A stretch of DNA of 64,000 nucleotides. Origin: a virus. Below the pieces are notes generated by a model. The model was not told the DNA's origin, searched no databases, and was given only the letters and a program-made list of their open reading frames with translations. The position numbers and the translations under genes were made by a program. The DNA lies in IMG/VR virus record IMGVR_UViG_3300027970_000012, positions 1-64,000 of that record; one strand, 5' to 3'. Shown in pieces: positions 6,006-59,601 of this stretch; within the stretch, counting starts at the first letter, position 1; every line of letters begins with the position of its first letter.

Positions 6006-8120
6006 CTACAATTTAAAGTTTACAAAGGTATCAGTGTCAATATCTTGTTTGATTGCTCCTACTAAATACGAAATTTTTTCAGTCTCCTGTGGGCTTTCTT
6101 GAACTTCCTTACTATTCAACCAATGTGAAGTCCAGGGTAAAGGATTATTCTTTGCGGGAATATCAAACATAGGAGCTAATCCAATTGCCTTTCTTCTACG
6201 ATTTGCAATCCAATCCACGTAATTGAAAAGTAATTTGTCGTTCAATCCAATCATACTTCCATCACGAAACAGATACTGTGCCCATCGTTTTTCTTCATTC
6301 ACAGCAAGTTCAAACATTTTATCTACATAATGTTTCTCTTCCTGAATGATTCCAAGCATTTCTGGGTCATCTCCCTGCCTCCATTTAGTGAGAATTTTTT
6401 GTGTGAGATTTAAATGACAATTTCCAGATACAATGACTTTATTCTCATAACGAACAACTAACATTCCACTGGGAACGGAGACACAGAATACATCTCCATC
6501 ATAGTTATAAGTTGAAGTTGTTTTTGGTTTGGCTCCAGCGCAATAGTAATCTCTATCTTGAATGATGGTTATGCGATGAACATTCTTATATCTATCCTGT
6601 CTATGGTCTATTTGAATACCTCTATGTGCTCTTCTTCCAGAAAGAGCGGCAATGGCTTGAACCATATCAGCTACATCTGAATTTGTAGTAGAGAAATAAA
6701 TGTTAGAATAATCTCCATTTCTTAGATGACCATCCCAGTGAGAAAGCTCTTCTAGAAATTCAATACACCAAGCGCCACCAACTTCTTCTAGATTAACCCA
6801 AGAGAAATCCTTAACAACATCGTGCTCTATAGGAACCCATACAGTATACACGTAAGAAATTTTATCATTATGTATAAATTCTATTTTCGTATGTCTAAAT
6901 TGAATCTGCTCTAGAATATGGTCCAGCCTATCAATTTTTCTGGGTTTTGTAAGAGTAAAAGTTGTAATATTACACCCATTGAATTTTCCATTTCTGAGGT
7001 CTTTATTCTGTATTGACCCATCTGCCTGCAGAGCAATTTTAAATCTTTCAACATATGAAAGTTCGGCTCTACCACCAGTTTTAACCCCAGAAGCAATAAA
7101 ATGTTTCAAAAAAGAAGAATTAAATTCTTCCGCAGTATTTTCTTTAATGTCTCTAGTGATGCTATCTCTCCAGATAATTCTATGGTCTGGGGTGACTACC
7201 TGTTTGAAGTGTCCTTTGATATTGGAGAACTCATACACTAAACCAGAATGAGGTTTTTTAGTGTAATGTAATGGATGCACAAATTCAATTGAACCATTCG
7301 TATTATATTGAGCCACTTTTTCTGTCTGGTCTAGGTCCTCAAATTTCTTCCATCCAATTGGTGTTAAAACTTCAGTTCCTTTCACAAAACAGCTTTCATC
7401 ACGCGAAATCAGTGAGATAATCTTGGCCGAACCTTCCATCAGTTTTAGCTCACCAAAAGCGAAACTACAGGCGAAGCTCACATAAAAGCGAATTCCTTCA
7501 AGAATATTCACATTCATAATTGCCCGATATAGCTTCCGTTTCAGTTCTATTCTTGTGGATAATCCGACATCAATTCCTTCATTCGCAAATCTCCACATAT
7601 TTGTAGAGCCATATTGTTGAGCATAATTGATAAAGTCATTATAGGACTCAGTTACTGATGCCGCTCTCTCTAGAATCATCTCATCATGAATGATAGTATC
7701 AAATACTTCTGTTGGATTTGCATATACATTTTTGATGATATGAGTATATGAGCGACTATGAATCATCTCAAAGAACTCCCAGGCAGTCATCGCAGCTTCC
7801 AATTCAGGAAGAGAGCAATAAGGAATGAATGCCATTCCTGGTCCTCTTCCTTGAACGCTATCTAATAGAATTTGATACTTTAGATTTGAAGTGAATATAT
7901 GCTTCTGTTCTGGGCGAAGAGTCATATAATCAGATTTATCTTTCTGTAAAGAAATCTCCTCGGGTCTCCAGAAGAAACTCAATTGTTGTTGAGTGAGTTT
8001 TTCAAATTCTGGGTATTTGAATGTGTCATATCTTTGAACTCCTAGAGGAGCCCCAAAGAACATAGGTGATTTAGTCGTATCAATATCCTCGGTATTAAAT
8101 ACCGTCATTCCATTTATCAT
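6006..8120 (-). CDS. nrdB: Ribonucleotide reductase class Ia beta subunit, intein-containing
   Basis: FFWRPEEI, LLDSVQGR, EMIHSRSY, LEGIRFYVSF, RDES/CHL, PQETEKISY. Confidence 0.96.
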   Translation of the reverse strand: MINGMTVFNTEDIDTTKSPMFFGAPLGVQRYDTFKYPEFEKLTQQQLSFFWRPEEISLQKDKSDYMTLRPEQKHIFTSNLKYQILLDSVQGRGPGMAFIPYCSLPELEAAMTAWEFFEMIHSRSYTHIIKNVYANPTEVFDTIIHDEMILERAASVTESYNDFINYAQQYGSTNMWRFANEGIDVGLSTRIELKRKLYRAIMNVNILEGIRFYVSFACSFAFGELKLMEGSAKIISLISRDESCFVKGTEVLTPIGWKKFEDLDQTEKVAQYNTNGSIEFVHPLHYTKKPHSGLVYEFSNIKGHFKQVVTPDHRIIWRDSITRDIKENTAEEFNSSFLKHFIASGVKTGGRAELSYVERFKIALQADGSIQNKDLRNGKFNGCNITTFTLTKPRKIDRLDHILEQIQFRHTKIEFIHNDKISYVYTVWVPIEHDVVKDFSWVNLEEVGGAWCIEFLEELSHWDGHLRNGDYSNIYFSTTNSDVADMVQAIAALSGRRAHRGIQIDHRQDRYKNVHRITIIQDRDYYCAGAKPKTTSTYNYDGDVFCVSVPSGMLVVRYENKVIVSGNCHLNLTQKILTKWRQGDDPEMLGIIQEEKHYVDKMFELAVNEEKRWAQYLFRDGSMIGLNDKLLFNYVDWIANRRRKAIGLAPMFDIPAKNNPLPWTSHWLNSKEVQESPQETEKISYLVGAIKQDIDTDTFVNFKL
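6420..7391 (-). mobile_element. NrdB intein (324 aa) with LAGLIDADG endonuclease
   Basis: RDES|CFVKGTEVLTPIGW...VTPDHRI...DVFCVSVPSG...VIVSGN|C; IALQADGS and LSHWDGH blocks. Confidence 0.93.
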
Positions 8121-8129
8121 AATATTACC

Positions 8130-9218
8130 TTAAATTGAACAGCTATCACAAGTTTCATCTTGTGAGTTTAAAATTTCATCAATCAAATTTTGAGTTTCAT
8201 CCTTCGCAGAGGAATCAGTTTTTCCATCATATGTGTTTTGATAGTAAGCAGTTTTATGTCCTTTAGCATATGCGGAAAGAAAATCATTTACAATCACGCT
8301 CATTGGAACTTCATTATTTGGATAGTGCTCTGGATTGTAATTCCAATTTGCACTAATAGCTTGGTCAAAGAACTTCTGAATCATCGCAACAATATTAAAG
8401 TATCCCTCATTGGATTTAATATCCCACAATAGAGTATAATTATTTTTGAGTGTATTATACTGTGGGACGATTTGCTTAATAGGTCCTTTCTTTGATTGTT
8501 TGATGGATAGATAACCTCTAGGAGGCTCAATTCCATTTGTAGCATTAGAGGTCACACTAGATGACTCACTGGGAAGAATGCAAGTAAGAGTATTATTTCT
8601 CAGGCCATATTGAATGATACTCTGACGTAATTCTTCCCAATCGTGTTGATATGAGACCTCGCAGATATCATCAATTTCTTTTTTGTAGGTGTCTATGGGT
8701 AGAATTCCCTGAGAATATTTGGACTGATAAAAATCAGAACAAACTCCCTTCTCCTTAGCTAATTGATTTGAAGCCTTAAGTAGGTAATATTGAATACTTT
8801 CCGCAAGACCGTGAACTGCTTTCCAAGCTTCTGGGTCTTCATATTTGAATCCTAGTTTTGCAAGATAATGTGCAAGCCCAATAACCCCTATTCCTAAAGT
8901 TCTTCCTCCTTTTGCAGAAAGTTCAGCAGCTCTAATTGGATAGGACTGATAATCAATCAATTCGTCTAAAGACCTGACACACAAATCACACAATTCTTCA
9001 AGTTCTTCATCAGACTTAATTTTACCTACGTTTAAAGCTTTTAGAATACACAATGCAATTCTTCCGTTCTCATCTTCAAGACTTTGAATAGGTTTTGTTA
9101 GAAGAGTTATTTCTGTACAATTATGAATTAAGATATCATTCGCAAAGAAATTATGATTATCCTCCACAGTAATATCATATACTGGAATTTCGTTTTCAAG
9201 ATGTTCAATTTTTAGCAT
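8130..9218 (-). CDS. nrdA: NrdA C-terminal fragment fused to split-intein C part (9120..9218, 33 aa)
   Basis: MLKIEHLENEIPVYDITVEDNHNFFANDILIHN|CTEI; then ILPSESSS, ATNGIEPP, KTAYYQNT and terminal CDSC. Confidence 0.95.
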   Translation of the reverse strand: MLKIEHLENEIPVYDITVEDNHNFFANDILIHNCTEITLLTKPIQSLEDENGRIALCILKALNVGKIKSDEELEELCDLCVRSLDELIDYQSYPIRAAELSAKGGRTLGIGVIGLAHYLAKLGFKYEDPEAWKAVHGLAESIQYYLLKASNQLAKEKGVCSDFYQSKYSQGILPIDTYKKEIDDICEVSYQHDWEELRQSIIQYGLRNNTLTCILPSESSSVTSNATNGIEPPRGYLSIKQSKKGPIKQIVPQYNTLKNNYTLLWDIKSNEGYFNIVAMIQKFFDQAISANWNYNPEHYPNNEVPMSVIVNDFLSAYAKGHKTAYYQNTYDGKTDSSAKDETQNLIDEILNSQDETCDSCSI

Positions 9219-9865
9219 TTTTTTCTAGTTCGGTTAAGATAATTCGTCTGTGTCTATAATATGGATTGTAACTCAATCCTGTTTTTTCTTCAAGTATTTT
9301 AGAATAATTTATATACTTCCCACCAAATCTATTTTTTGAAAAGTGTTTTGGAAAAGTCAAATTTAAATGAGTTATCGCAAACTCTCTCAATACCATAATC
9401 CCAGGAATAAACTTATATATTTTAATAAATTTTATTCCTATTTCAATTAAATCCTCATCAGTTAATCCATTCCAATTTGGATTAGAATACCCAGTTGAGT
9501 TGAGTGTTAATGAATTAAACCAATTGTCCTGGACTTCTTTAGAACATCTGGGAATCATCCACCCGCCTGTTCCACCTAAAGTTGCATTATAACCTTTTTT
9601 AGTATTACTTTCAAAAAGTTTAATAAAATGGATTTCTTTTTCGTTTATGATATTAACATTCTCAGTTTGGTAAGTTTCAATAATGGATAAATCCCAACAA
9701 TCTTCACCATATTTTCTAATTGCGGAATGAAATCTAAATTTAGAGCCATTTCTTGCACAAGAGAGGTGCCGATTCCATCTATGTGATAGAGAATATTCAG
9801 TTTTTCCTATGTAGCATTTACTATTTTTTTAAATTTGTGATTTTATAAATGATGTGAGTTTTCAT
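9205..9865 (-). pseudogene. GIY-YIG homing endonuclease between the nrdA halves, 1-nt frameshift in an A7 run
   Basis: ATG 9865 MKTHIIYKITNLKK-stop; removing one A at 9824-9830 gives ...NSKCYIGKT...FHSAIRKYG...GYNATLGGTGG open into ORF 9205..9558. Confidence 0.88.
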
Positions 9866-9866
9866 T

Positions 9867-9920
9867 ATATTAAGTGTAATCTCACGGCTAGTTATAATAT
9901 ATAGAGATTACACTTAATAT
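9867..9920 (-). promoter_or_regulatory. 17-bp perfect hairpin abutting the endonuclease start codon
   Basis: ATATTAAGTGTAATCTC-N20-GAGATTACACTTAATAT, ending 1 nt before ATG 9865. Confidence 0.75.
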
Positions 9921-11545
9921 CAATTGATTATTAATTCATCAGTTTCAACCAAATCTTTTACCATCACATATCCACGATTTTTCGTAAATACTTTGTGTCC
10001 TGGTGTGGCTACGATACTCTTACCCGTTTCTTCATCAGTAATTCTCATTACTTCTGATTTCGGAGAAGTCTGTGCAAATGCAGTGATTTGTTTCCATTCT
10101 AAAATATCACTTTTTATGTTATAAGAAAGGACTTTTATATTAGAGTAGCTATTCATAAATTTCGGCAAATCCTGAATTTCAATTCTATCCCACTCATCCT
10201 CATCAAGTAATACTTCTATTTTAGTATCACCAGAAACGCATAAATTGCTCATTGCAACTTGTTCTATAAATGAACTGTGAGAGTTGCAGTGGTCTATATT
10301 CATAATATAGATTCTACCAGTTTCCGCTCTTTCTTTGAGTAAGTCAAGAATCAGTTTTTGTGCCCCAACAACTTTTCTTGGAATGGTGAGGTCTTTTTCA
10401 TATTTTGTATAGAGTTCATCAAACTCGGGCATTCCGAATACATCATATAGACCAGGAACATTCTGAGGAGAGAAGAGTGTGATTTCTGCATTCTGAATGA
10501 ATCGTTCGTAGAATATCTTGGACAACTGAATGCCGTAATCCAACTTTCGGGCACGATTTTCCTCAGTTCCTTTGTTGTTCTTAAGAACGAGAACTTCCTC
10601 AATTTCAGTATGCCAAATTGGAAAATAAACCGTAGCGCTGCCTTGACGAATTCCACCTTGATGACAAGATTTGAGAGAGCTTTCAAATTTCTTCAGAAAT
10701 GGAATGATACCCGTTGATAGAACTTCTCCATTCCGAATCTTACTATTGATTGCACGTAGTCTTCCGATATTCAATCCAATTCCAGCTCTACCCGCCACAT
10801 ACTTCATCATCGCGCCATCAGAAGCAATGATGCTGTCTAGAGTATCGTCTACATCAATGAGAGTGCAGGAGGCAAATTGCCGAGATGGAGTTCTCACTCC
10901 CGCCATAATAGGAGTAGGAATATTAATTTTATGTTTGGAGACCGCATCATAATATCTCTTCACATAATCCATACGAATTGTTGAATTATAGTTTGAGAAC
11001 ATAGTCAGTGCAATCATCATATATGCAAACTGAGGCGTTTCGTATAGCGTTGATGTGCTTCGGTCTTGAACCAAATACTTATCTACGACTTGACGTAGAC
11101 CAGCATAAGTGAAGAGATAATCTCTATGATGGTCAATATATTCTCCAAGAGCATTTAGTTCTTGCTCAGTATACTTCTCAAGAACTTCCTTATCGTATAC
11201 ACCCAAATTTACACAATTTTGAATGTGTTCGTAGAATTTAGGATGGTCCTTAAGTCTACCATAGATTTTCTTACGAATAGAAAACAGTAGAAGTCTTGCT
11301 GCAACGTATTGATAGTTTGGAGAATCCAAAGAAATCAAATCGGATGCAGATTTGATGAGAATTTCCTGAATATCTGAGGTAGTAATTCCATCATACAATT
11401 GTATTCCTGAAGAAATTTCAACTTGCGATGCAGATACTCCAGATAATCCAAAGCAGGCTTCATCCACCATTCTATGAATTTTATCTAACAGGAGTATCTC
11501 ATCCTCTCCACTGCGCTTCTTAACTCTAATTTCTTTGTTGCTCAT
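9920..11545 (-). CDS. nrdA: NrdA N-terminal fragment fused to split-intein N part (9923..10240, 106 aa)
   Basis: ATP cone VKKRSG, PTPIMAGVRT, QFASCTLI, MSNL|CVSGDTKI...ATPGHKVFTKNRGY; likely start 11545 (ORF track gives 11575). Confidence 0.95.
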   Translation of the reverse strand: MSNKEIRVKKRSGEDEILLLDKIHRMVDEACFGLSGVSASQVEISSGIQLYDGITTSDIQEILIKSASDLISLDSPNYQYVAARLLLFSIRKKIYGRLKDHPKFYEHIQNCVNLGVYDKEVLEKYTEQELNALGEYIDHHRDYLFTYAGLRQVVDKYLVQDRSTSTLYETPQFAYMMIALTMFSNYNSTIRMDYVKRYYDAVSKHKINIPTPIMAGVRTPSRQFASCTLIDVDDTLDSIIASDGAMMKYVAGRAGIGLNIGRLRAINSKIRNGEVLSTGIIPFLKKFESSLKSCHQGGIRQGSATVYFPIWHTEIEEVLVLKNNKGTEENRARKLDYGIQLSKIFYERFIQNAEITLFSPQNVPGLYDVFGMPEFDELYTKYEKDLTIPRKVVGAQKLILDLLKERAETGRIYIMNIDHCNSHSSFIEQVAMSNLCVSGDTKIEVLLDEDEWDRIEIQDLPKFMNSYSNIKVLSYNIKSDILEWKQITAFAQTSPKSEVMRITDEETGKSIVATPGHKVFTKNRGYVMVKDLVETDELIIN

Positions 11546-11559
11546 AATTGATTTGACTC

Positions 11560-12552
11560 CTAAATTCTTTTCCAACCTATCATTTTAGCTTTTGCCGCTA
11601 ATCCACGAAAAGTATTATCTTTAATAATATTTTCTGGAGATAATCCTGCAATTATCATATCATTCACATCTTTATACTCCAAATTTTTTGGCCAAACTAC
11701 AATAGAGTCTCCTGATTCTATTGTAGTTTCCATACGATGAACAATGTGTTTATTTCTTCTTTCATTATCATATACATAAACAAAATTACAATCTTTAAAC
11801 TTATGTAAAGTTTTGATATTCAAATCAGCTCCTACCATAGCTATAGAATTTGGTATAAACATACTATCAAATGGCCCTTCCAAAACATATATTGGAGAAT
11901 TCACATTCACATTGTCCAATCCATAAATCTTCGGTAGTTCATTATTTAGAATTACGGTGATGTACTTCACTGTAGAATTTTTGGACAGTGCTCTACCCTG
12001 AAATCCGAAGATTTGATTTTCATATATGAGTGGAATTACAATTCTACTCTCTTCATAATCTGTAGTCTCAAATGTGTGTATTTGAGAATTAGTCCACTTC
12101 TTAAAACTTTCACAGAAGTATAATTGATTCCATTTTGATTTGGGGATTTTTCTAGATTCAATATACTTTCGGGCAATATGAGTTTCGGATAACTCTGAAA
12201 TCGTGAGTAAATCAAAATACTTTTTACTAAATGTGGGTTTCTTTTTTGGTGGAGATGAAACTAATTTTAATGTTTTTGAACCTTTATTCTTAAACTTCTC
12301 AAAAACATATCTATCATATATCGATTTGTCTATGTCCTTCAGTACCATAGATATATTACAAGATTTTCCGCAATTATGACATTTATAATTATATGTGTCT
12401 TTCACTGGATATAAATATCCTCGCGCTTTGTTTTTATATCTTTCACTGTCTCCACAATAAAAACATCTAAAATTGTAGGTGTTACCTTTTTTTATAAATT
12501 TAAGTAGTTGTGGTGAAATTTCGGCAATATACTTTTCCTCAATAAATGACAT
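11560..12552 (-). CDS. g61: DNA primase gp61
   Basis: Zn finger CFYCGDS...CHNCG; TOPRIM EGPFDS, YDNE, KDVND. Confidence 0.95.
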   Translation of the reverse strand: MSFIEEKYIAEISPQLLKFIKKGNTYNFRCFYCGDSERYKNKARGYLYPVKDTYNYKCHNCGKSCNISMVLKDIDKSIYDRYVFEKFKNKGSKTLKLVSSPPKKKPTFSKKYFDLLTISELSETHIARKYIESRKIPKSKWNQLYFCESFKKWTNSQIHTFETTDYEESRIVIPLIYENQIFGFQGRALSKNSTVKYITVILNNELPKIYGLDNVNVNSPIYVLEGPFDSMFIPNSIAMVGADLNIKTLHKFKDCNFVYVYDNERRNKHIVHRMETTIESGDSIVVWPKNLEYKDVNDMIIAGLSPENIIKDNTFRGLAAKAKMIGWKRI

Positions 12553-18237: not shown

Positions 18238-18777
18238 TTAGTATTTAAATTTCAAAAATTTATCCATTTTATTGGATTGTTCTTCAGGATTATAGTCGGA
18301 TTCTAATTCTTCGTCAAGAGCTTCTATTTGAGCAGATTGCTCAACGTTATATAGCTTCATTTTTGTTTTGTCTATACCTACTACAAATCTCTTGAATTTA
18401 GAAACATCATTATCACGATTTCGGAGTTGTTTGAACATTACCTGTCCTAAATTAGACAACTCTTCTGTATTAATGAGAGCAACTGCAACGTCAGCAGTCA
18501 TCATAGTTCCAAAACTATTTTTTGTTAGTATGCCATTACAATAAAATAAATTATCCCCCGATACTCCGATATTAATAGTTTCCAATTCTCCTAATTCTAT
18601 AATCTCTACAATTTCATCAACATAGCTTATGTTATTGTCGGTTATTGTATCTTTCTCTTGTTTTTCTTTGTCTAATTTAATCAACAATTCCGTAAGTTCA
18701 AATAAATCTAGATTACTCAATCCAGATGAAATCATTTTTTCTGCCGTTCTAAAACATTTTAATTCTAAATTATCCAT
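18238..18777 (-). CDS. g41: gp41 helicase C-terminal fragment fused to split-intein C part (18517..18777, 87 aa)
   Basis: ...ETINIGVSGDNLFYCNGILTKN|SFGTMMTAD...KQLRNR...FVVGIDKTKMKLY. Confidence 0.93.
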   Translation of the reverse strand: MDNLELKCFRTAEKMISSGLSNLDLFELTELLIKLDKEKQEKDTITDNNISYVDEIVEIIELGELETINIGVSGDNLFYCNGILTKNSFGTMMTADVAVALINTEELSNLGQVMFKQLRNRDNDVSKFKRFVVGIDKTKMKLYNVEQSAQIEALDEELESDYNPEEQSNKMDKFLKFKY

Positions 18778-18786
18778 TTATAATCT

Positions 18787-20157
18787 CTATGAAAGTGAAT
18801 TTAATTTGTCGCCAGGAGTAAGCCCAGTATTGATTGATATTCTACCCCTATTTGTTGGAAATATATGGTCCTTACTCACAATAAGTTCTTTACCACTCTT
18901 AGTCCTAATTTTAACACAATCCTTGAATTTTTTATGATGAGTCAACATAACTGTCTTATATCCATCGTGTGAAGTAATTTGGTCTCCGACACAAATATCT
19001 TGAATTTGCTTTATTGCGCCGTCTCTAAGTTCAACTTTTTCATTCACATAGATGCATTCAGAAACATCAGTCATATCTGGGTCAGAGGATGTTGATCCAC
19101 CTCTACCACTTTGAGTAGCACTCAGAATGGGAACATCATACTCTACAGCAAGTGCTCTAAGTTCTTCTGCAACACTTTTAATATAAGTGTATGAGTTAAT
19201 ATTTGAGTTCTTCTTATATCTATTAGAAGCACAAATATTCAGATAATCAATGAAGATGATGTCTGGATGAAAATGTTTCTTCAGAGCAAGTTCACTCAAA
19301 AGACTTTTGAAGTGCCCAACGTGACCACATCCAGTTGGATATTCTTTAACAATAAACTTCCCGTGAGTTTTTTGAGCCAATTTAATAATTCTAGACTCAA
19401 ATTTTTCTTTCGGAATACTACTCAGTTCGGAGATATTCACATTCAGTAGATTTGAGTCTATTCTCTGAGCGACTTTCTCCTCCGACATTTCTAGACTAAT
19501 GTAGAGAACATTCTTACCCTGAGCTAGAAATGAGCTTGCAAAAGAACACATTGACAATGACTTGCCCGCATTAGGAGCAGACATAATCAGGAATAGGGTT
19601 TTCTTAGAGAGACCACCACCTGTAATTTTATTGAAGTAATCTATATCAAATGGAAGCTTATCCTCTTTACGAGTATAATATTCAAATCTTCTTTCATAGT
19701 CCTCAATTAAGTCGTGACCAATATGTTCATCAAATGAGATAGATAATGCATCCTGCAGAATTCCAGGAATAGCGTCTCTATCCTTAACCTCATCTCCACC
19801 ATCTGCAATACGAATACTTTCCATCAGTGCAAGATAGATTGCTCTGTCTCTACACCATTTCTCAGTGTTATCCACTAACCATTTTAAGTCTACGTGACTA
19901 TCATCTAGACTCCTAATGTAGTTGCAGATATTCTTATATCCATCTTCATTCAAATCTGTTCTCTTTTCAGTTTCAATGAGTAGAATTTCTTTTGTTGCTA
20001 AGTCTTCATAGGAAATGATGAACTTACTAATTTCCTCAAATAATATTCTTTCGTGAGAATTATCAAAATATTCAGGATTGATAAAGGGTAATACCTTTTT
20101 ATAATAATCACTATTGAAAATTAAATTTCGGAGAATAGTGGTTTCAATTTTTTCCAT
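18787..20157 (-). CDS. g41: gp41 helicase N-terminal fragment fused to split-intein N part (18790..19056, 89 aa)
   Basis: Walker A APNAGKS, IDYLNIC, SATQ, DVSE|CIYVNEKV...SKDHIFPT. Confidence 0.95.
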   Translation of the reverse strand: MEKIETTILRNLIFNSDYYKKVLPFINPEYFDNSHERILFEEISKFIISYEDLATKEILLIETEKRTDLNEDGYKNICNYIRSLDDSHVDLKWLVDNTEKWCRDRAIYLALMESIRIADGGDEVKDRDAIPGILQDALSISFDEHIGHDLIEDYERRFEYYTRKEDKLPFDIDYFNKITGGGLSKKTLFLIMSAPNAGKSLSMCSFASSFLAQGKNVLYISLEMSEEKVAQRIDSNLLNVNISELSSIPKEKFESRIIKLAQKTHGKFIVKEYPTGCGHVGHFKSLLSELALKKHFHPDIIFIDYLNICASNRYKKNSNINSYTYIKSVAEELRALAVEYDVPILSATQSGRGGSTSSDPDMTDVSECIYVNEKVELRDGAIKQIQDICVGDQITSHDGYKTVMLTHHKKFKDCVKIRTKSGKELIVSKDHIFPTNRGRISINTGLTPGDKLNSLS

Positions 20158-52166: not shown

Positions 52167-54317
52167 TTAAACGCTTCCTACAACTTCGGAGAATGAAACT
52201 CCTGTTTTTGTAGCCACAAAAGTCAGTCCTACAAAATTGATAGACCTGTTTGGTTTGATATAAATATCAGCCTTGAATTCATTTGCATCAATCACATCAG
52301 GAGTGTTGTTTGACTCATCACATACCAATATAAATTCTGAAATTCCACGTTTTGCTCTTACATCTCTTAGATAAGGCTCAACAATATTAATGAAGTTAGT
52401 TCTTGTGATAGAATCGTTAAATTCAAATAACTGGGCTCTGGCAGCCTGCTCAATAGATTGTTCTAAAGTTAAGAATAACATTCTCACGTTGATTCTATCA
52501 AAGGCTGATGGGTATGCTAGACCTGTCTTATCTCCAAAAAGAATATATCCAGAACCTGCAGAAGAGATGATAGGATTGATTCTGTTTGAATATAGTGAAT
52601 CTCTTTGAGTTTTTGTTGGATTGTAAGCTAGTTTGATGATATTGTTGATAGTTCCTCTGGTGCTTCCAGCAGGAGAATACCAAGGATAGCTGTTTATAGA
52701 AGTTCTTACAATTGCTCCTGCAACATCAGAATTACAAGGAATATATACAAACTTGCTATTGAAACGGTCTAGAGTATACTTATATCCACTATCAAAGATT
52801 ACATAAGAAGAAGATTTGATAGGAGAGAAGAACTGTAGAATGGCGTTTGTTTGAGTAGTACTATTATTACTTCCCACTACACTAGACTTGTATGGAGAAA
52901 CAACAGCAATACAGTCTTTTCTAGACTCTGCAATGTTGATAAGTTCATTTGCCTTTGCTTGAGCATCATAAATTGTTGGTCCACCAGATGGTCCACCCAA
53001 AATAAAGTTAATAGAACTTGCTTCTACATTTAGAAAGAGTCTATATGACGTAATAATATCTTGTGTACTGACTGAGTATCCACCAAGGAAATTCACTCCG
53101 CTATAATCTGTTCCTCCAACTAAGTTATAAAGTCGTGAGCCGATTACGTTGTAGGATTTATCTTGAACCGCAGTTCCCCAAGGACTTGAAGTTAGACTAT
53201 AAGTATTTCCACTCAGTTGAGTGATATCTGAAACTCTTCCTGCTTCTGGGAATCCAACAAAGACATAGTTTGAATTCTGATTTACAAATTCTTTATAGTA
53301 GATGGGTTGAGATGGTGAAATTCGGGCATCAATACCTTTGGATAGTCCAGTGAATTTTTCAAGAACGTTTCCAGATACTCCACTAATTACACCAGTATCA
53401 TCTACAACTACAACGTGAACCTCATCACTCTTTGCATTTCTTTCTAGAGCATATTGAGAAGTTCCAGGCTTTGGTGCAATGGATTTCCAATAGATAATTC
53501 CATTCTTGAGTGATATAACTTGATTATCATACCAGTCTTGAATAGCTCCAGAACTTACAGTGGTGACTACAGTTCCTGCAGTTCCAGTAACAGTCAGTGC
53601 AGTAGTGGTGGGTGCAACTAAAGAGGATACCACAGAGCTGTAGTTGTAGTTAATATCAACTTCTTGACCAGCACTTGGAACTCTGCTGATAACTTTAATA
53701 TCAAAGGAACTATTACCAATACCCGTAATTAGTCCTCTGACGTAGCCAGTGAATGTGCCCACAGTACCATCAGCTTGTAGGTATTGTGTAGCAGTTTTGG
53801 TTTGTGTGACCGCAAGACCTACCTGAATACCACTTGTGGAAATTCCAGTTACAGTTTGGTCTGCTGCAGCATCAATTACACAAACTTTCAGGTCATTTGC
53901 CCAGGAACCAGGATTTCTTGCAGAAAATACCCAATCCACATCATTGATACGATTGCTTTGATAATCTTCGTATGAAGTGATTTTTAACGAAATGGAAGTA
54001 TTTGCAATTGTAACATTAGAGTTAATCAGTGCAGAAGGATTTCCAGTAACATCGCTTCTTACAACATTCAGTGCTCCACCATAAGATAGGTAGTTAGATG
54101 CAGACAACCAGTATTCATATTGGTCTTCTGATGTTTGTGGTTTTCCAAAAATATCTAATAATTCTTGTTCTGACTGAATGATGGTTGGAACATTTACTGG
54201 ACCCTTCTGAAATGGACCGACAATGGCTCCAACATTCTGTCTACTTGAAACAATATTTCCTCGTGTTAAATCAACCTCTCTTATATTCACACCAGGAGAT
54301 ACCAAATTGATAGCCAT
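52167..54317 (-). CDS. g18: Tail sheath protein gp18
   Basis: SPGVNIREVD, WYSPAG, FDRINVR, YIKPNRSINF; likely start MAINL at 54317. Confidence 0.97.
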   Translation of the reverse strand: MAINLVSPGVNIREVDLTRGNIVSSRQNVGAIVGPFQKGPVNVPTIIQSEQELLDIFGKPQTSEDQYEYWLSASNYLSYGGALNVVRSDVTGNPSALINSNVTIANTSISLKITSYEDYQSNRINDVDWVFSARNPGSWANDLKVCVIDAAADQTVTGISTSGIQVGLAVTQTKTATQYLQADGTVGTFTGYVRGLITGIGNSSFDIKVISRVPSAGQEVDINYNYSSVVSSLVAPTTTALTVTGTAGTVVTTVSSGAIQDWYDNQVISLKNGIIYWKSIAPKPGTSQYALERNAKSDEVHVVVVDDTGVISGVSGNVLEKFTGLSKGIDARISPSQPIYYKEFVNQNSNYVFVGFPEAGRVSDITQLSGNTYSLTSSPWGTAVQDKSYNVIGSRLYNLVGGTDYSGVNFLGGYSVSTQDIITSYRLFLNVEASSINFILGGPSGGPTIYDAQAKANELINIAESRKDCIAVVSPYKSSVVGSNNSTTQTNAILQFFSPIKSSSYVIFDSGYKYTLDRFNSKFVYIPCNSDVAGAIVRTSINSYPWYSPAGSTRGTINNIIKLAYNPTKTQRDSLYSNRINPIISSAGSGYILFGDKTGLAYPSAFDRINVRMLFLTLEQSIEQAARAQLFEFNDSITRTNFINIVEPYLRDVRAKRGISEFILVCDESNNTPDVIDANEFKADIYIKPNRSINFVGLTFVATKTGVSFSEVVGSV

Positions 54318-54407
54318 ATGTTTTCCTCTGAACCAAAGTCTCATTTCCTAGTAGTATTTAGGAAAATTGATTTTTATCAGACCAGTTGTGTTAAATTATA
54401 CAAAAAT

Positions 54408-55655
54408 TTATCCCATATAAAATTCGGACGAAACATCTCCATACTCATCTAAATTCCATACTTCCATCGGCATATTTTCTGTATTCGCCATCATCCAAAC
54501 ATCTCCAGTTTCTTTTTCAACTGTAATTTCATCATCATTCTCTAATCCAGTATTAATAAATCCAAATGGAGCCATATCTTGTTCAATCTGCTCCTTCTGT
54601 TCAAGATACATTCTCTTACGAATGTCATTGTTGGTAATTTCTTTGAAGTATTCCTGAACAACTAACCAAGAGAAAATTACGATACACATACAAAGGTCAT
54701 CATTCGTTCCAATTTCAGCTTGATATGAATTATTTTTGGATATGAATGTAGTTAACTCACTAATAATATCAAAGTCTTCAATGATAAGTTTATTGTCCTC
54801 AATGATGGTTTTCATATTAGAACAACCCACTCTCTTTACTTGCTTGGACATTTTGATTCCTAACTGTGAGGTCTTACCCGAAAATCCTTGTCCAACTAAT
54901 TGTCCAGCTCTACCTCTCATAGAACACATTAGAAGATTTTCATACTCAAGTTCATATTGTAAGTCTTTGGCTACTTGGTCTCCTACACTTGCGATTTCAA
55001 TGAGAACATAAGCTTTGTTATATGAATTTGCTACCTTATAAATGATATCTGGAAGAAGTAGTGGCTTAAGTTCATTATTTTTATACTTTGCAACAATCTT
55101 GTATGGAATATTTGTGATGTCGTATATGATGAATGCGTGATAATCCTTACCCGTTCCTTCTGAAACGTCCACAGTCATAATGTAATTGTGTTCCTCTATA
55201 GGAGGTTCATACACATCAAGTCCTTCAGACCGAGTAATTGGGTCGTTGTATATTAGGTTTTGTAGTTTTGATGAGGTAATGAGCGTATCAACAGAACCTA
55301 GGAAACTACAGTTGTGTGATACTATATTGTTAGAATAATAAAGATGGTCTTCTCCAGAGTTGACAATATCAAATAATTCTACTTCTTTCTTAATGGTTCG
55401 GTATGATTTGAGAAATGTTCCACCATTCTTGGTAAAAACTTCTGTTGTCTTATTTAAATTCTTAGCTTTGACAATACCATCTATTGTAGAGAGTGGATGG
55501 TCCAAAGAGCACTTGAGTTCATTTCCGTCTTCAAATATTAAATGAATATATTTGTTCTTCTTAATCTTATTGACGCCCAGAAAAGATTGAAATCCATTTG
55601 GAGTTGAGATTTTAATCTTTTTATGATTTAATACTATGGTTTCTGGAAGCTTCAT
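54408..55655 (-). CDS. g17: Terminase large subunit C fragment (nuclease) fused to split-intein C part (55311..55655, 115 aa)
   Basis: MKLPET...STPNGF...CSLDHPL...LFDIVN...YYSNNIVSHN|CSFLGSVDTLI; VDVSEG and NDDLCM nuclease motifs. Confidence 0.95.
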   Translation of the reverse strand: MKLPETIVLNHKKIKISTPNGFQSFLGVNKIKKNKYIHLIFEDGNELKCSLDHPLSTIDGIVKAKNLNKTTEVFTKNGGTFLKSYRTIKKEVELFDIVNSGEDHLYYSNNIVSHNCSFLGSVDTLITSSKLQNLIYNDPITRSEGLDVYEPPIEEHNYIMTVDVSEGTGKDYHAFIIYDITNIPYKIVAKYKNNELKPLLLPDIIYKVANSYNKAYVLIEIASVGDQVAKDLQYELEYENLLMCSMRGRAGQLVGQGFSGKTSQLGIKMSKQVKRVGCSNMKTIIEDNKLIIEDFDIISELTTFISKNNSYQAEIGTNDDLCMCIVIFSWLVVQEYFKEITNNDIRKRMYLEQKEQIEQDMAPFGFINTGLENDDEITVEKETGDVWMMANTENMPMEVWNLDEYGDVSSEFYMG

Positions 55656-55680
55656 TCAGTTAGGAACTTTATACATCTAT

Positions 55681-55800
55681 TTAATGTTTCTTGTTTATAT
55701 GAGTTCTGGTCTTAAATCCATATTTTTCTGCTATTTGTTGATGAGTCATATTTAGATTATGATAATCAAATTCAATCTGTTCCTTGGTTGGATAGTTCAT
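55681..55800 (-). pseudogene. Internally deleted homing endonuclease relic between the g17 halves
   Basis: MNYPTKEQIEFDYHNLNMTHQQIAEKYGFKTR HTH start; another frame ends KQETLNRCIKFLTE* overlapping ATG 55655. Confidence 0.65.
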
Positions 55801-58800
55801 TATAAAGTTCACCTATGGTGGTTTCAACTACAATACCATTAACCATTATATTTATCAAGGTTTCAGGTAGGAACGATTCAAATTCCTGATTCCATTGCTC
55901 TAAGCTCGTATTTGCGATACTTTGCTGCTTAAATTTCTCGTCTCTACCTGGAACCTCACTCCAATGAACCTCAGTTGGAACATATTCATTCTTACCACGT
56001 ATGGCGTCATTCCAAAATCTATAAAAGGTATTCATTCCTTTAGGGGTTTGGTGGCCTAAAAAGTTGTTGTATAATACCGAGTGCGCCCAAGAATCATCAG
56101 CAATATCGGGTAGAGAAACATCAAAAACTTCATTCTCACTTAATTTAATATCTTTAATTTCTAACCAAATCATATTTTCGTTCACATTATCATCAAAGAA
56201 TCTTTTAATATTTTCATTAGAGCATAACTCTTCTTTATTTTCTAATAGAAGTTGTCTAGAATAATTTTTAAATTCCTTATGCCTTCTTCCCAATGAAGGC
56301 ATTCCATTTTCAGCTAGAATTACTGCAGAATTTGGAATAATATCGGTTCTACTTCCAACTCTAGTTGAAGCTTTCAATAGATTGATTCTTTCTAATTTTC
56401 TTGGTAGAGAGAACCCAATTTGAGAGAAATATTCAAATGCATATTTACCGACTATTTCAATATCAAAATGAGTTGAACTAACTTTAACTCTTTCTGAAGG
56501 TCCAGAAGTAGCTATATAAATGCTACCTAGTATGCCCATATTAGCTAATAATAATTGAACTTGACGAATTAACTCTCTTGAAGTTGAAGTATATTTAACT
56601 CTTCCTTTATTATCAATACCTCCATCACCATCAAACATCCCTCTTAATAGAGCTGTAATGTTAGATTTAGACCAGGACAACACTTTATCTGGCAGTGTTT
56701 TTACTCCAGCTTTATTTGTAATATCAAATCCTAGTTCTTTAAGAAAATCTACAAGTTGCTTTGAATTGATGACATAATGTACATCATCAATCTTTTTATA
56801 TGGAACATTTAGAGTATTCAAACAATATGAAATATCGTCACCACAACTGATTACAATTTGTCCACCAGTAATATTGTGAGTATTCTTGGATACACAGTCT
56901 CGCGCATATCCCTCTGCAACATAAAGCCCGACAAAATATGCAATGTCTTCAGTTATATAATCACAACAAAATGTGTCAATACATTTTCCCTGTTCTGGAT
57001 GAAATCCGATGTAATCTTCATTTCCAAAAACTTGATGATTATATTTTATGGCTAAATAATCGCCTACTTTTAGATGTTTACTCTCTACGTAATTATACTC
57101 ATTGTTGTGAAACGCCCAAAGTTTATGAGTTTGAGAGCATTCTAATGTTTCATACCGAGTGGTTATAATATTTGTAGAAGAAGCTTGATGATTAACAATA
57201 ATATCACTGGTATAGAACTTATTCTTACCCATTACAGTATACTCTGGAACTTGATAAGCACCTGTTTTGGAGATATCAATAAGCCTCTCAATTTTTCTGT
57301 ATCCTTTATTTGTAAGAAGATAGGTATCTTTTGATACACAAGAAACCATAATTACCTTGGTGTACTTACCAGAAGTAATCGTAGGATATACAGAACTAAA
57401 AAACTCGTCTGCAATTTGATTCGGAATGAACGCAAATTCGTCCAGGAAGATTACATTATATGAACCTCCTCGGACGGCAGAACCAGAAGTAGAAGATGCA
57501 ATAATTTTTGAACCATTGTCCAGTTCTAGAGAAGCCTTATTCCAAATCTTAACTCCATGTTGCATCCATTTGGGTAGATTCTCATAGGCAAGCTTTAGTC
57601 TACCTAAAATATCTTTTGCAGTTTGAGCTTTGTTAGCTAGAATGGCGACATTAACATTATCATTGAATATGATATAGTGAAGTAGATATGAGATAGCTGT
57701 AGTCGTATTATGAGTAGGAATGAATGTTCTTCCACATAGAAATAAGTGAGTTTCACTATCTACTTGAATACACGCTACAGGAACACTCTCCACTTTTTCT
57801 ATATTTTGTATATAATGTCTGGTATTCTGTGGCCTACTTTTTCTCTCAAAATTTATTAAATTTAATTTTCTTGGAAGATTGAAAATACACTCCTTACTAG
57901 CAAATCTGATGGTATAGTACCAACATTGATTAATGAGTCTTCTACTTACTCTAGACTTTATTCCTAATGTAGCTAATAGTTCAACAACCTGAAGAATAAG
58001 CTCATAATTTTTTTGATAAAATTCAAATGATTGAGTTTTTGTAATTGACCCATCAGAATCCATCAGTCCTCTCAACAATTCCAATCTCTGGTCTACTGAT
58101 GCTCGTAGATATTCTTGAGGAATATGTTTATTTTTCAATAAACTATTTTCTTCCAATTCTTTATTTAACCCACGACACTTGAACCGAATACAATTCTTAT
58201 AGACTGTCTCCTGTTCAACATCAATTTTAGTTTTATAAAATTCATAATCATCTTTATGGGCAACGATTCTCCCCTCGTGAGACGAACCATCACCTAACCA
58301 AAGACCAAGAAGATATGGGTCTATTGGTAAATCTTTGGGAGTTCCGACCATTGGTTTGGAGCATTCAATATAAAATGCGCCAGCCACACCTTTTCCTCTT
58401 TTGTTGTTGGCTTTTTCAGAGTATCTTAAATACATTTCATTTGTATTGATAACTCTCTTTCCAGCAGTCCAATAAGAACTATTTACTTCCCACAGATGTT
58501 CTGCATCGGCAATAATTTCTTCACCATTATCAAAGTATATTTTATAACATTGATGATTTAACATCGTTTCTGTTTTAAATGTTACAGAAACTGGATTCCC
58601 ATTTGGAGCAAGTACCCTATCTCCGACCTGGATATCCCCAATTGTAGTCCATCCTTCAGGAGTTGGTATTGGAGTATCTAACGATAATGGCTTACCAACC
58701 TGGCGTGGTAATTTACAAATATTGAATCTATGTTGATGAAACTTCTTAATGAGTTTCTCTTGAAACTTATATAATTTAAATGGAATGAGACCTTCATCAA

Positions 58801-58951
58801 GGCTCACAATTTTAATATAATTTCTTGCAAAATATACTGGGTCCTTCTTACACTTAATGAACTCCTGAATATTTTCTGCAGTGAATTCAATGGATATATT
58901 TGCTCTCTTTAGAAGAGGATTACCAGAGTAAATTTCATTGGCGGCAGCCAT
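55772..58951 (-). CDS. g17: Terminase large subunit N fragment (ATPase) with two cis inteins and split-intein N part (55775..55876, 34 aa)
   Basis: YSGNPLLK, PRQVGK/T, FLDEFAF, VS/TPKG, HWSEVPGRD, QEFE|SFLPET. Confidence 0.96.
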   Translation of the reverse strand: MAAANEIYSGNPLLKRANISIEFTAENIQEFIKCKKDPVYFARNYIKIVSLDEGLIPFKLYKFQEKLIKKFHQHRFNICKLPRQVGKPLSLDTPIPTPEGWTTIGDIQVGDRVLAPNGNPVSVTFKTETMLNHQCYKIYFDNGEEIIADAEHLWEVNSSYWTAGKRVINTNEMYLRYSEKANNKRGKGVAGAFYIECSKPMVGTPKDLPIDPYLLGLWLGDGSSHEGRIVAHKDDYEFYKTKIDVEQETVYKNCIRFKCRGLNKELEENSLLKNKHIPQEYLRASVDQRLELLRGLMDSDGSITKTQSFEFYQKNYELILQVVELLATLGIKSRVSRRLINQCWYYTIRFASKECIFNLPRKLNLINFERKSRPQNTRHYIQNIEKVESVPVACIQVDSETHLFLCGRTFIPTHNTTTAISYLLHYIIFNDNVNVAILANKAQTAKDILGRLKLAYENLPKWMQHGVKIWNKASLELDNGSKIIASSTSGSAVRGGSYNVIFLDEFAFIPNQIADEFFSSVYPTITSGKYTKVIMVSCVSKDTYLLTNKGYRKIERLIDISKTGAYQVPEYTVMGKNKFYTSDIIVNHQASSTNIITTRYETLECSQTHKLWAFHNNEYNYVESKHLKVGDYLAIKYNHQVFGNEDYIGFHPEQGKCIDTFCCDYITEDIAYFVGLYVAEGYARDCVSKNTHNITGGQIVISCGDDISYCLNTLNVPYKKIDDVHYVINSKQLVDFLKELGFDITNKAGVKTLPDKVLSWSKSNITALLRGMFDGDGGIDNKGRVKYTSTSRELIRQVQLLLANMGILGSIYIATSGPSERVKVSSTHFDIEIVGKYAFEYFSQIGFSLPRKLERINLLKASTRVGSRTDIIPNSAVILAENGMPSLGRRHKEFKNYSRQLLLENKEELCSNENIKRFFDDNVNENMIWLEIKDIKLSENEVFDVSLPDIADDSWAHSVLYNNFLGHQTPKGMNTFYRFWNDAIRGKNEYVPTEVHWSEVPGRDEKFKQQSIANTSLEQWNQEFESFLPETLINIMVNGIVVETTIGELYNELSNQGTD
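56048..57340 (-). mobile_element. gp17 intein b (431 aa), LAGLIDADG, C-terminal Gln
   Basis: MVS|CVSKDT...CSQTHKL...GLYVAEG...LRGMFDGDG...VFDVSL...FLGHQ|TPKG. Confidence 0.93.
57707..58690 (-). mobile_element. gp17 intein a (328 aa), class 3, Pro1, LAGLIDADG
   Basis: VGK|PLSLDTPIPTPEGW...ADAEHLW...LGLWLGDG...LRGLMDSDG...VACIQV...IPTHN|TTT. Confidence 0.93.
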
Positions 58952-58957
58952 AATACT

Positions 58958-59134
58958 TTATATTGGTTTGATACTACTCATTGTCTCTAGAGTAGATAGG
59001 TGCAACTTTATATAGGATTTGAATAAAGACTTCAATGTGTCTACATTTTCGCATTTATCAATCTCTCTACACAGACAGATAAATTCAAATTGCTTACTCA
59101 AATCTTTTAATTCAATTCCATCAGAATTCGGCAT
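58958..59134 (-). CDS. Small helical protein, NblA-like (not in ORF track)
   Basis: MPNSDGIELKDLSKQFEFICLCREIDKCENVDTLKSLFKSYIKLHLSTLETMSSIKPI*; start overlaps the upstream stop. Confidence 0.55.
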   Translation of the reverse strand: MPNSDGIELKDLSKQFEFICLCREIDKCENVDTLKSLFKSYIKLHLSTLETMSSIKPI

Positions 59135-59601
59135 CAAGTATCTCCATATAAAAATAAGGGTTTCGTGGGGTCGTGTTCACTTGGACTGAACTTCAATACT
59201 CTTGCTTCAGGGTATATCTTATTAATTTGATGAGACATTTCTGCTTTAGTAGGTCTAGAAAATCCAGAAACAAAAATTTGAAGAGTCCTAGGAATTCCTC
59301 TCCAAGTAAACAGTATATGATAAGTGTTTCCAGTTTTCTGTAGCCGTGTATACGATTCTGACATAGGAGATTCTATTGTTTCTAATTTATCATAATAATT
59401 TGGAATTTCATCTACATGTTGAGCAGCTATTGTGAGTGCTAATCTATTGTTGGTAGTATGCTCTTTTTCAATCTTATGTCCTTTATTTAGTTGTTTTTGA
59501 ATAAATTTTACGGACACCCCATACTTTTTAGCCAATTGCTCAGGAGTTTTTGATGATTTTATTGAGCGTAAAATCTTTGAAAGTTCTTTGTATGATTTCA
59601 T
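59134..59601 (-). CDS. Hypothetical protein with CTS-like start
   Basis: MKSYKEL; KGHKIEKEHT...QHVDEIPNYYDKL domain; MSE linker. Confidence 0.65.
   Translation of the reverse strand: MKSYKELSKILRSIKSSKTPEQLAKKYGVSVKFIQKQLNKGHKIEKEHTTNNRLALTIAAQHVDEIPNYYDKLETIESPMSESYTRLQKTGNTYHILFTWRGIPRTLQIFVSGFSRPTKAEMSHQINKIYPEARVLKFSPSEHDPTKPLFLYGDT

Follow-up and report, generated by a model that had tools for sequence, protein, structure and literature searches.

Three types of intein that have been described separately appear, from their sequence signatures, to lie together in one gene for the large subunit of the terminase (TerL, a T4-type gp17). The gene was found in the first 64,000 nucleotides (nt; hereafter the window) of the IMG/VR virus record IMGVR_UViG_3300027970_000012. 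Among the closest described systems, the class 3 inteins are defined by a signature of Pro1, a Trp-Cys-Thr (WCT) triplet and Thr+1 (PMC2807308, PMC5050341), and their prototype, in DnaB of mycobacteriophage Bethlehem, has 341 amino acids (aa) with Pro1 and Thr+1 (PMC2807308). The DnaBi1 intein of Mycobacterium smegmatis needs Cys48 for splicing itself, and a disulfide between Cys48 and Cys118 stops the reaction reversibly (PMC6195587); zinc inhibits it as well (PMC7360933). Inteins that end in Gln are known to splice, slowly in the case of PolII inteins and efficiently in that of CIV ribonucleotide reductase (RNR) (PMC4031507). Lastly, the GOS-TerL intein is split into parts of 37 and 115 aa, has Ser1 and Cys+1, and follows the class 1 pathway, which here includes an uphill step from oxoester to thioester, its splicing being slow and showing a temperature optimum (PMC11766414).

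Several inteins in one protein have also been recorded. TerL of Microcystis phage Mic1 has two intein types, which have been suggested to control packaging (PMC7156551), DnaB of M. smegmatis has a class 3 and a class 1 intein (PMC6195587), and a split dnaE with multiple inteins is attributed to Trichodesmium (Liu and Yang 2003, as cited in PMC2874743). The window's TerL gene resembles these in bringing several inteins of different type into one essential ATPase or polymerase, and differs in combining three types, among them a class 3 and an atypical split intein, and in that natural allelic variants were caught at near-identity.

In our assessment it is very probable that this single TerL gene was colonised independently by three splicing-competent mobile elements of the intein type, at conserved sites of the ATPase domain, and that the stack is a by-product of homing. 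Each of the three inteins, named a, b and c in their order along the protein, appears to fit a type already published. Active TerL of 566 aa would need three reactions, two in cis (a, b) and one in trans (c).

Terminase gene and insertion sites

The gene occupies two open reading frames (ORFs) on the minus strand. ORF1 (55772..58951; 1059 aa) comprises TerL exteins 1 to 3, inteins a and b, and the N-terminal half (IntN) of the split intein c, while ORF2 (54408..55655; 415 aa) comprises the C-terminal half (IntC) of intein c and extein 4. Extein 1 (58691..58951, minus strand; 87 aa) ends in the residues PRQVGK of Walker A. Extein 2 (57341..57706, minus strand; 122 aa) corresponds to residues 167-286 of T4 gp17, with Walker B included, and extein 3 (55877..56047, minus strand; 57 aa) to T4 gp17 from residue 287 on. 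Extein 4 (54408..55310, minus strand; 300 aa and the stop codon) covers the last part of the ATPase domain, followed by the RNaseH-like nuclease domain.

A script and an alignment with gp17 of Prochlorococcus phage P-SSM2, which has no inteins, reproduced exactly the original prediction of four pieces, 87+122+57+300 = 566 aa, the product having a mass of 64.9 kDa. Spliced TerL is colinear with P-SSM2 gp17 and the alignment is exact at all three junctions, which confirms the insertion points; the predicted junction peptides VGK|TTT (a), MVS|TPK (b) and QEFE|CSF (c) are also those that had been put forward before. Pfam identified Terminase_6N and two LAGLIDADG domains in ORF1 and Terminase_6C in ORF2, with intein-splicing matches below threshold in both ORFs alike. 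The identification as a T4-type gp17 comes from the Terminase_6N ATPase and Terminase_6C nuclease, colinear once spliced in silico with P-SSM2 gp17 and the solved T4 gp17 (3EZK/3CPE).

On the T4 gp17 structure (3EZK numbering) site a lies at K166|T167 in Walker A, site b at T286|T287 in the TTT coupling motif, and site c at about 353|354, close to where the ATPase domain ends. The break between ORF1 and ORF2 hence roughly parts the ATPase from the nuclease half of TerL. A promoter and terminator scan gave fewer promoter-like sites than in shuffled sequence, and found no minus-strand terminator between the ORFs.

Intein a in Walker A

Intein a (57707..58690, minus strand; 328 aa, residues 88-415 of ORF1) directly follows the Walker A Lys87 and contains a LAGLIDADG endonuclease. 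It starts with PLSLDT, has DAEHLW as block B and VACIQV as block F, and ends in PTHN before TTT. The key residues are Pro1, Cys48, D62xxH65, W67 (B:12), C307 (F:4), T326 (G:5)-H-N328 and Thr+1, the first residue being Pro and no Cys, Ser or Thr nucleophile; Thr+1 is equivalent to T167 of T4 gp17, in the ATPase P-loop. The WCT triplet is complete (W67, C307, T326) and aligned with the W, C and T of 6BS8, the solved class 3 DnaBi1 intein, which the splicing domain matches with E = 1.5e-27 (phmmer). An intein in Walker A with Pro1, block-B Trp, block-F Cys and block-G Thr had been proposed earlier, and this description holds to the residue; its signature assigns intein a to the class 3 type.

Intein a homologues are found in 751 cultured-phage records, the closest (64% identical) in TerL of Synechococcus phages B3 and B23. 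Among 84 unique inteins at the same site, which are 43-80% identical, H65, W67, Cys F:4, Thr G:5 and the terminal His and Asn are invariant (84/84), and Cys48 is found in 83. Both acidic residues of the LAGLIDADG endonuclease are present in intein a and are conserved in at least 96% of the homologues. Residue 1 is variable: Ala in 76, Ser in five and Pro in three.

Like the Bethlehem DnaB intein and DnaBi1, intein a has a non-nucleophilic residue 1, WCT at B:12/F:4/G:5, a DxxH block B, Thr or Ser at +1 and an insertion in the P-loop between Lys and Thr/Ser, and it keeps Cys48. Unlike DnaBi1, which is a mini-intein, it possesses a LAGLIDADG endonuclease; its host protein is a T4-type TerL of a freshwater phage. 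By the class 3 route, intein a would leave the 121-kDa ORF1 product through attack of the block-F Cys on the Lys-Pro1 bond, after which the N-extein would be transferred to Thr+1 and the Asn would cyclise.

The relationship to DnaBi1 bears on an adaptive explanation offered with the original prediction, in which the inteins were co-opted as redox, metal or temperature sensors of splicing, making the maturation of TerL, and with it DNA packaging, depend on permissive conditions. Its appeal lies in the disulfide and zinc blocks of DnaBi1 splicing (PMC6195587, PMC7360933), in the retention of both cysteines (Cys48, Cys307) by intein a, with Cys48 kept almost throughout its homologues, in the slow, temperature-dependent splicing of GOS-TerL (PMC11766414), and in the same idea having been put forward for the two-intein Mic1 TerL (PMC7156551). 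The redox part is plausible by homology only, since the redox pair of DnaBi1 has its counterparts in Cys48 and Cys F:4 of intein a. However, DnaBi1 requires Cys48 for splicing itself (PMC6195587), so that conservation of this residue alone is no sign of regulation.

A second family of inteins was observed at a site a' (RQ|S/CGK), three residues upstream of site a. These are Pro1 mini-inteins of 147-153 aa with the Trp B:12 and Cys F:4 signature, and they occur in the proteins P0007, P0008, P0011-P0015, P0017-P0019, P0021, P0028 and P0077. Some end in THN and others in TMN, TIN, TKN, HKN or QKN, sometimes followed by Cys+1.

Intein b in the coupling motif

Intein b (56048..57340, minus strand; 431 aa, residues 538-968 of ORF1) contains a LAGLIDADG_3 endonuclease. 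It begins with CVSKDT and ends in FLGHQ before TPK, its characteristic residues being Cys1, SQTH in block B (S69xxH72), VFDV in block F (with Asp at F:4), H430-Q431 and Thr+1. The placement in the coupling motif and the His-Gln end, both noted earlier, were verified to the residue (C1 to H430-Q431, at T286|T287 of T4).

The signature positions of a class 1 Gln-terminal intein are conserved across 32 unique homologues, with Cys1 in all 32 and the terminal Gln in 31. In this allele family Gln is thus what selection maintains, and no lesion. Relatives in cultured phages are few and at most 27% identical; one of them is in the Mic1 TerL. Comparison of intein b with solved structures gave similarity in the endonuclease domain only. 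Like the CIV RNR and Pyrococcus abyssi PolII inteins, intein b has Cys1, a C-terminal His-Gln in place of His-Asn, and a hydroxyl nucleophile at +1. Unlike them, it sits in the TerL coupling motif and belongs to an allele family of its own, with a conserved Gln, and beyond the endonuclease fold it has no detectable sequence relationship to them. Intein b would leave ORF1 by the class 1 route, with a Cys1 thioester passed to Thr+1 and cyclisation of the terminal Gln.

Split intein c and the spacer

IntN of intein c (55775..55876, minus strand; 34 aa, residues 1026-1059 of ORF1) starts with Ser1 (SFLPET), possesses no cysteine and stops at the ORF1 stop. IntC (55311..55655, minus strand; 115 aa, residues 1-115 of ORF2) heads ORF2, carries blocks B, F and G, and ends in IVSHN before CSF. 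The intein is split between blocks A and B onto separate polypeptides, with the junctions QEFE|SFLPET (Ser1) and SHN|CSF (Cys+1); a Ser1 intein divided between two genes is what the earlier reading had described. Residues 8-114 of IntC match the IntC of the engineered consensus intein Cat-TerL (6DSL_B, CatC) with E = 3.3e-19. The IntC end of ORF2 has 664 database hits, and in 102 unique IntC sequences the Ser-His-Asn end and Cys+1 are invariant or nearly so. The IntN tails of relatives start with Ser in many cases and with Cys in many others, and related IntC sequences sit at three or more TerL sites.

In the proposed reaction the 115-aa IntC, with which the 47-kDa ORF2 product begins, would be the docking partner of the 34-aa IntN tail, and trans-splicing would proceed through transfer of a Ser1 oxoester to Cys+1 and cyclisation of Asn. 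Like GOS-TerL, AceL-TerL and Cat-TerL (6DSL), intein c has TerL as its host and is divided directly behind block A, so that a short IntN (25-37 aa in these inteins) is paired with a long IntC (104-115 aa). It is likened to GOS-TerL in particular (Ser1/Cys+1 in both; 34/115 against 37/115 aa) by architecture, nucleophiles and CatC homology, not by insertion site. It differs from all three as a new sequence, whose nearest relatives in the database are no more than about 84% identical, and within the atypically split TerL inteins it stands apart in having its endonuclease gene reduced to a remnant.

The remnant is the spacer between ORF1 and ORF2 (55656..55771, minus strand; 116 nt). At site c of two related loci (L018 and L041), IntN and IntC are separated by a DUF559 endonuclease gene that is still intact, and the spacer aligns to the first ~20 and the last ~14 codons of that gene, with about 970 nt missing. 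It is a deletion remnant of a free-standing, Vsr-like (DUF559) homing endonuclease gene, of which the 5' and 3' ends are left. Fractured genes, in which a free-standing homing endonuclease gene lies between the halves of a split intein, are said to have been described by Dassa and co-workers in 2009; atypically split terminase inteins have reportedly been the subject of work by Dassa in 2009, by Thiel in 2014, and by Bachmann and Mootz in 2015. Between the halves of intein c there are only these 116 nt and no endonuclease gene, and the arrangement is a degenerate descendant of the fractured layout. Inteins a and b still have intact-looking LAGLIDADG endonucleases, and intein c, its free-standing endonuclease lost, is a fixed split.

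The leader of IntC, that is the first 13 codons of ORF2 (55617-55655, minus strand), reads M(K/N)LP(E/D)T(V/I), with conservation of at least 60% across 102 family members, and is similar to how IntN begins (S-F-LPETLI). Either the leader may be left over from the origin of the split, or it may be a placeholder for the missing strand.

A related atypical intein splits TerL at Walker B (IYIDE|C) in the cultured Krischvirus Shigella phage JK32 (MK962753.1; L047:760-3871). Since this phage propagates with a split TerL, a trans-spliced terminase is compatible with a viable phage. IntC matches in cultured coliphages were considered as candidate site-c splits and rejected, because translation of the JK32 locus puts the split at the Walker B Glu|Cys. 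In JK32 the first coding sequence carries the short IntN and, joined to it in frame, an endonuclease-like domain of about 300 aa.

Allelic replacement and occurrence in lakes

A 6-kb IMG/VR contig (IMGVR_UViG_3300029286_000707; L008) and the window share 99.98% identity across 4484 nt downstream of site a, and 107 nt upstream of the site agree in full (100%). At the P-loop site itself, the two (L008:1-3506 against 57707-58819 of the window) have different occupants. That of L008 consists of a 39-aa IntN with Cys1, a free-standing gene for a DUF559/Vsr-like endonuclease of 345 aa, and a 115-aa IntC ending in SHN|TTT, so that TerL lies there in three genes, with intein b in cis. The L008 IntC is 31% identical to the IntC of intein c in the window. 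In the eight codons before site a there are seven synonymous differences between L008 and the window, as would be expected for co-conversion or for a recoded homing site. Such allelic replacement at site a, the remnant of an endonuclease gene at site c, and the free combination of presence and absence among the relatives described below favour the dynamics of selfish elements. The replacement also speaks against the inteins having been co-opted as sensors, as a near-identical phage has an unrelated split intein in place of intein a.

Window DNA (53800-59400) was found in about a dozen lake-water metagenome runs (2019) and partly in freshwater runs (2021), with ORF2 on 12 contigs; no RNA run was listed among those containing it. 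The phage therefore comes from fresh water, though its nearest cultured relatives are marine cyanophages. In the lake runs, contigs are interrupted where intein a begins and ends, with one loose end running into the L008 allele. With site a polymorphic in the same lakes, the triple might have arisen through an assembler joining the alleles of different phages. Mismatch-free unitigs (records 4, 6 and 7) nevertheless bridge both borders of intein a by ~30 nt, one contig of 6.6 kb covers 53800-57712 without a difference, and an independent cluster (P0001) has the same layout; we regard such a chimera as exceedingly improbable.

It is also highly improbable that the gene is decaying, with one or more inteins no longer splicing, this TerL copy non-functional, and the phage defective or rescued by another terminase. 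The record is a fragment, and terminal Gln and Ser1-to-Cys+1 transfer are intrinsically slow chemistries (PMC4031507, PMC11766414), both as such a decay would have it. Yet the catalytic positions are all intact and in line with the family consensus, the exteins are ~70-75% identical to cultured cyanophage TerL without stops or frameshifts, the identical sequence recurs in the lake runs listed above, and the 91-kb record yielded one Terminase_6N match only. Intact catalytic residues, the single Terminase_6N match, the bridging unitigs and the layout of P0001 together make decay and misassembly unlikely.

Distribution among related terminases

The layouts were surveyed in the 120 best-scoring 90%-identity clusters related to ORF1, with proteins of 582-1854 aa, a size range that places intein-free TerLs of ~550-566 aa outside the survey. 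Intein a was found alone or with split c, intein b alone or with split c, and b together with a or with an a' intein, every pairwise combination of the elements occurring among the relatives. The triple of a P-loop WCT intein, a Gln-terminal intein and a split IntN with Ser1 recurs in at least three other clusters (P0001, P0008 and P0015), and in P0001, which is 66% identical, the layout a + b + split c lies in one ORF. The stack is consequently rare but not unique.

The original prediction knew of no protein described with all three types. Literature searches likewise found no published triple-intein or three-chemistry terminase, so that this part stands for descriptions in print; as a statement about nature it is weakened by the three recurring clusters. 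The anatomy and the three nucleophile schemes of the earlier interpretation match the published types by signature. A literature match combining three inteins with a terminase, Pectobacterium phage CB7, was discarded, as its three inteins sit in other genes. The dnaE gene of Trichodesmium erythraeum is said to carry two cis inteins and one split intein.

Another TerL relative, P0060 (1650 aa), was observed to have three contiguous (cis) inteins. That at site a has Ala1 and WCT, that at site b ends in Ser-Asn in place of His-Gln, and the third, of 357 aa, lies in the nuclease domain of TerL, at about residue 474 of the spliced reference.

The distribution bears further on the co-option of inteins as environmental sensors, since among close relatives every combination of the elements occurs, from none to one or two, and since cultured relatives, P-SSM2 among them, function with a gp17 that has no intein. 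On balance we consider this explanation unlikely. A stricter form supposes a three-input post-translational AND gate, in which a fixed splicing order and different environmental sensitivities would delay packaging to late, reducing, high-expression conditions in a freshwater host. Its inputs would be a redox/zinc trap in intein a (Cys48/Cys307), slow Gln cyclisation in intein b, and a temperature- and concentration-dependent trans step in intein c; we hold it to be decidedly doubtful. A packaging gate draws no support from anything found here and is speculation.

Some points weigh against independent colonisation by selfish elements as well. The sequences show the anatomy, the catalytic residues, their conservation across each family, the homology to characterised inteins and the history as mobile elements, while we infer the splicing chemistry of inteins a, b and c from characterised homologues. 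The viral record is about 48% complete, which leaves room for a second, intein-free terminase. The persistence of an endonuclease-less split intein c in hundreds of lineages is compatible with some benefit to the phage, as is the strict conservation of Cys48 in intein a.

Neighbouring genes and other intein-interrupted genes

Homologues of gp18 (tail sheath) and gp19 (tail tube) lie directly downstream of both TerL ORFs. Inteins were also observed in other genes of the window, all on the minus strand. An NrdB-like ORF of 704 aa (6006-8120) has a contiguous intein (SRDES|CFVKGTEVL ... VIVSGN|CHLN). NrdA is fractured (8130-11575): the upstream ORF ends in an IntN (SNL|CVSGDTKIEV...), the downstream ORF starts with a 33-aa IntC (…NDILIHN|CTE), and between the halves lies an ORF of 117 aa (9205-9558) for which no Pfam family was found. 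The gp41 helicase (18238-20157) is split by a gp41-1-like split intein, with no gene between the halves; its IntN starts at DVSE|CIYVNEK, and its IntC ends in GILTKN|SFG, with Lys for the penultimate His.

Conclusions

The stack in the window's TerL is an uncommon but recurring combination of intein types, all of them described before. It does not reveal a new mechanism, and the idea of a gate on packaging is speculative and had been voiced before for Mic1. The locus is a small natural system in which one essential enzyme is made only if three published splicing variants all work. For protein engineering it offers a new Ser1, cysteine-free IntN of 34 aa that belongs to the atypical TerL inteins, together with two inteins, one of class 3 and one Gln-terminal, which, from their sequences, evidently coexist without cross-reaction. 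Natural comparison alleles are at hand in a 99.98% identical phage with another, split intein in the P-loop, in relatives with an intact endonuclease gene at site c, and in relatives with each subset of the inteins. This allele series makes competition between inteins, loss of the endonuclease and the cost of stacked inteins directly testable.

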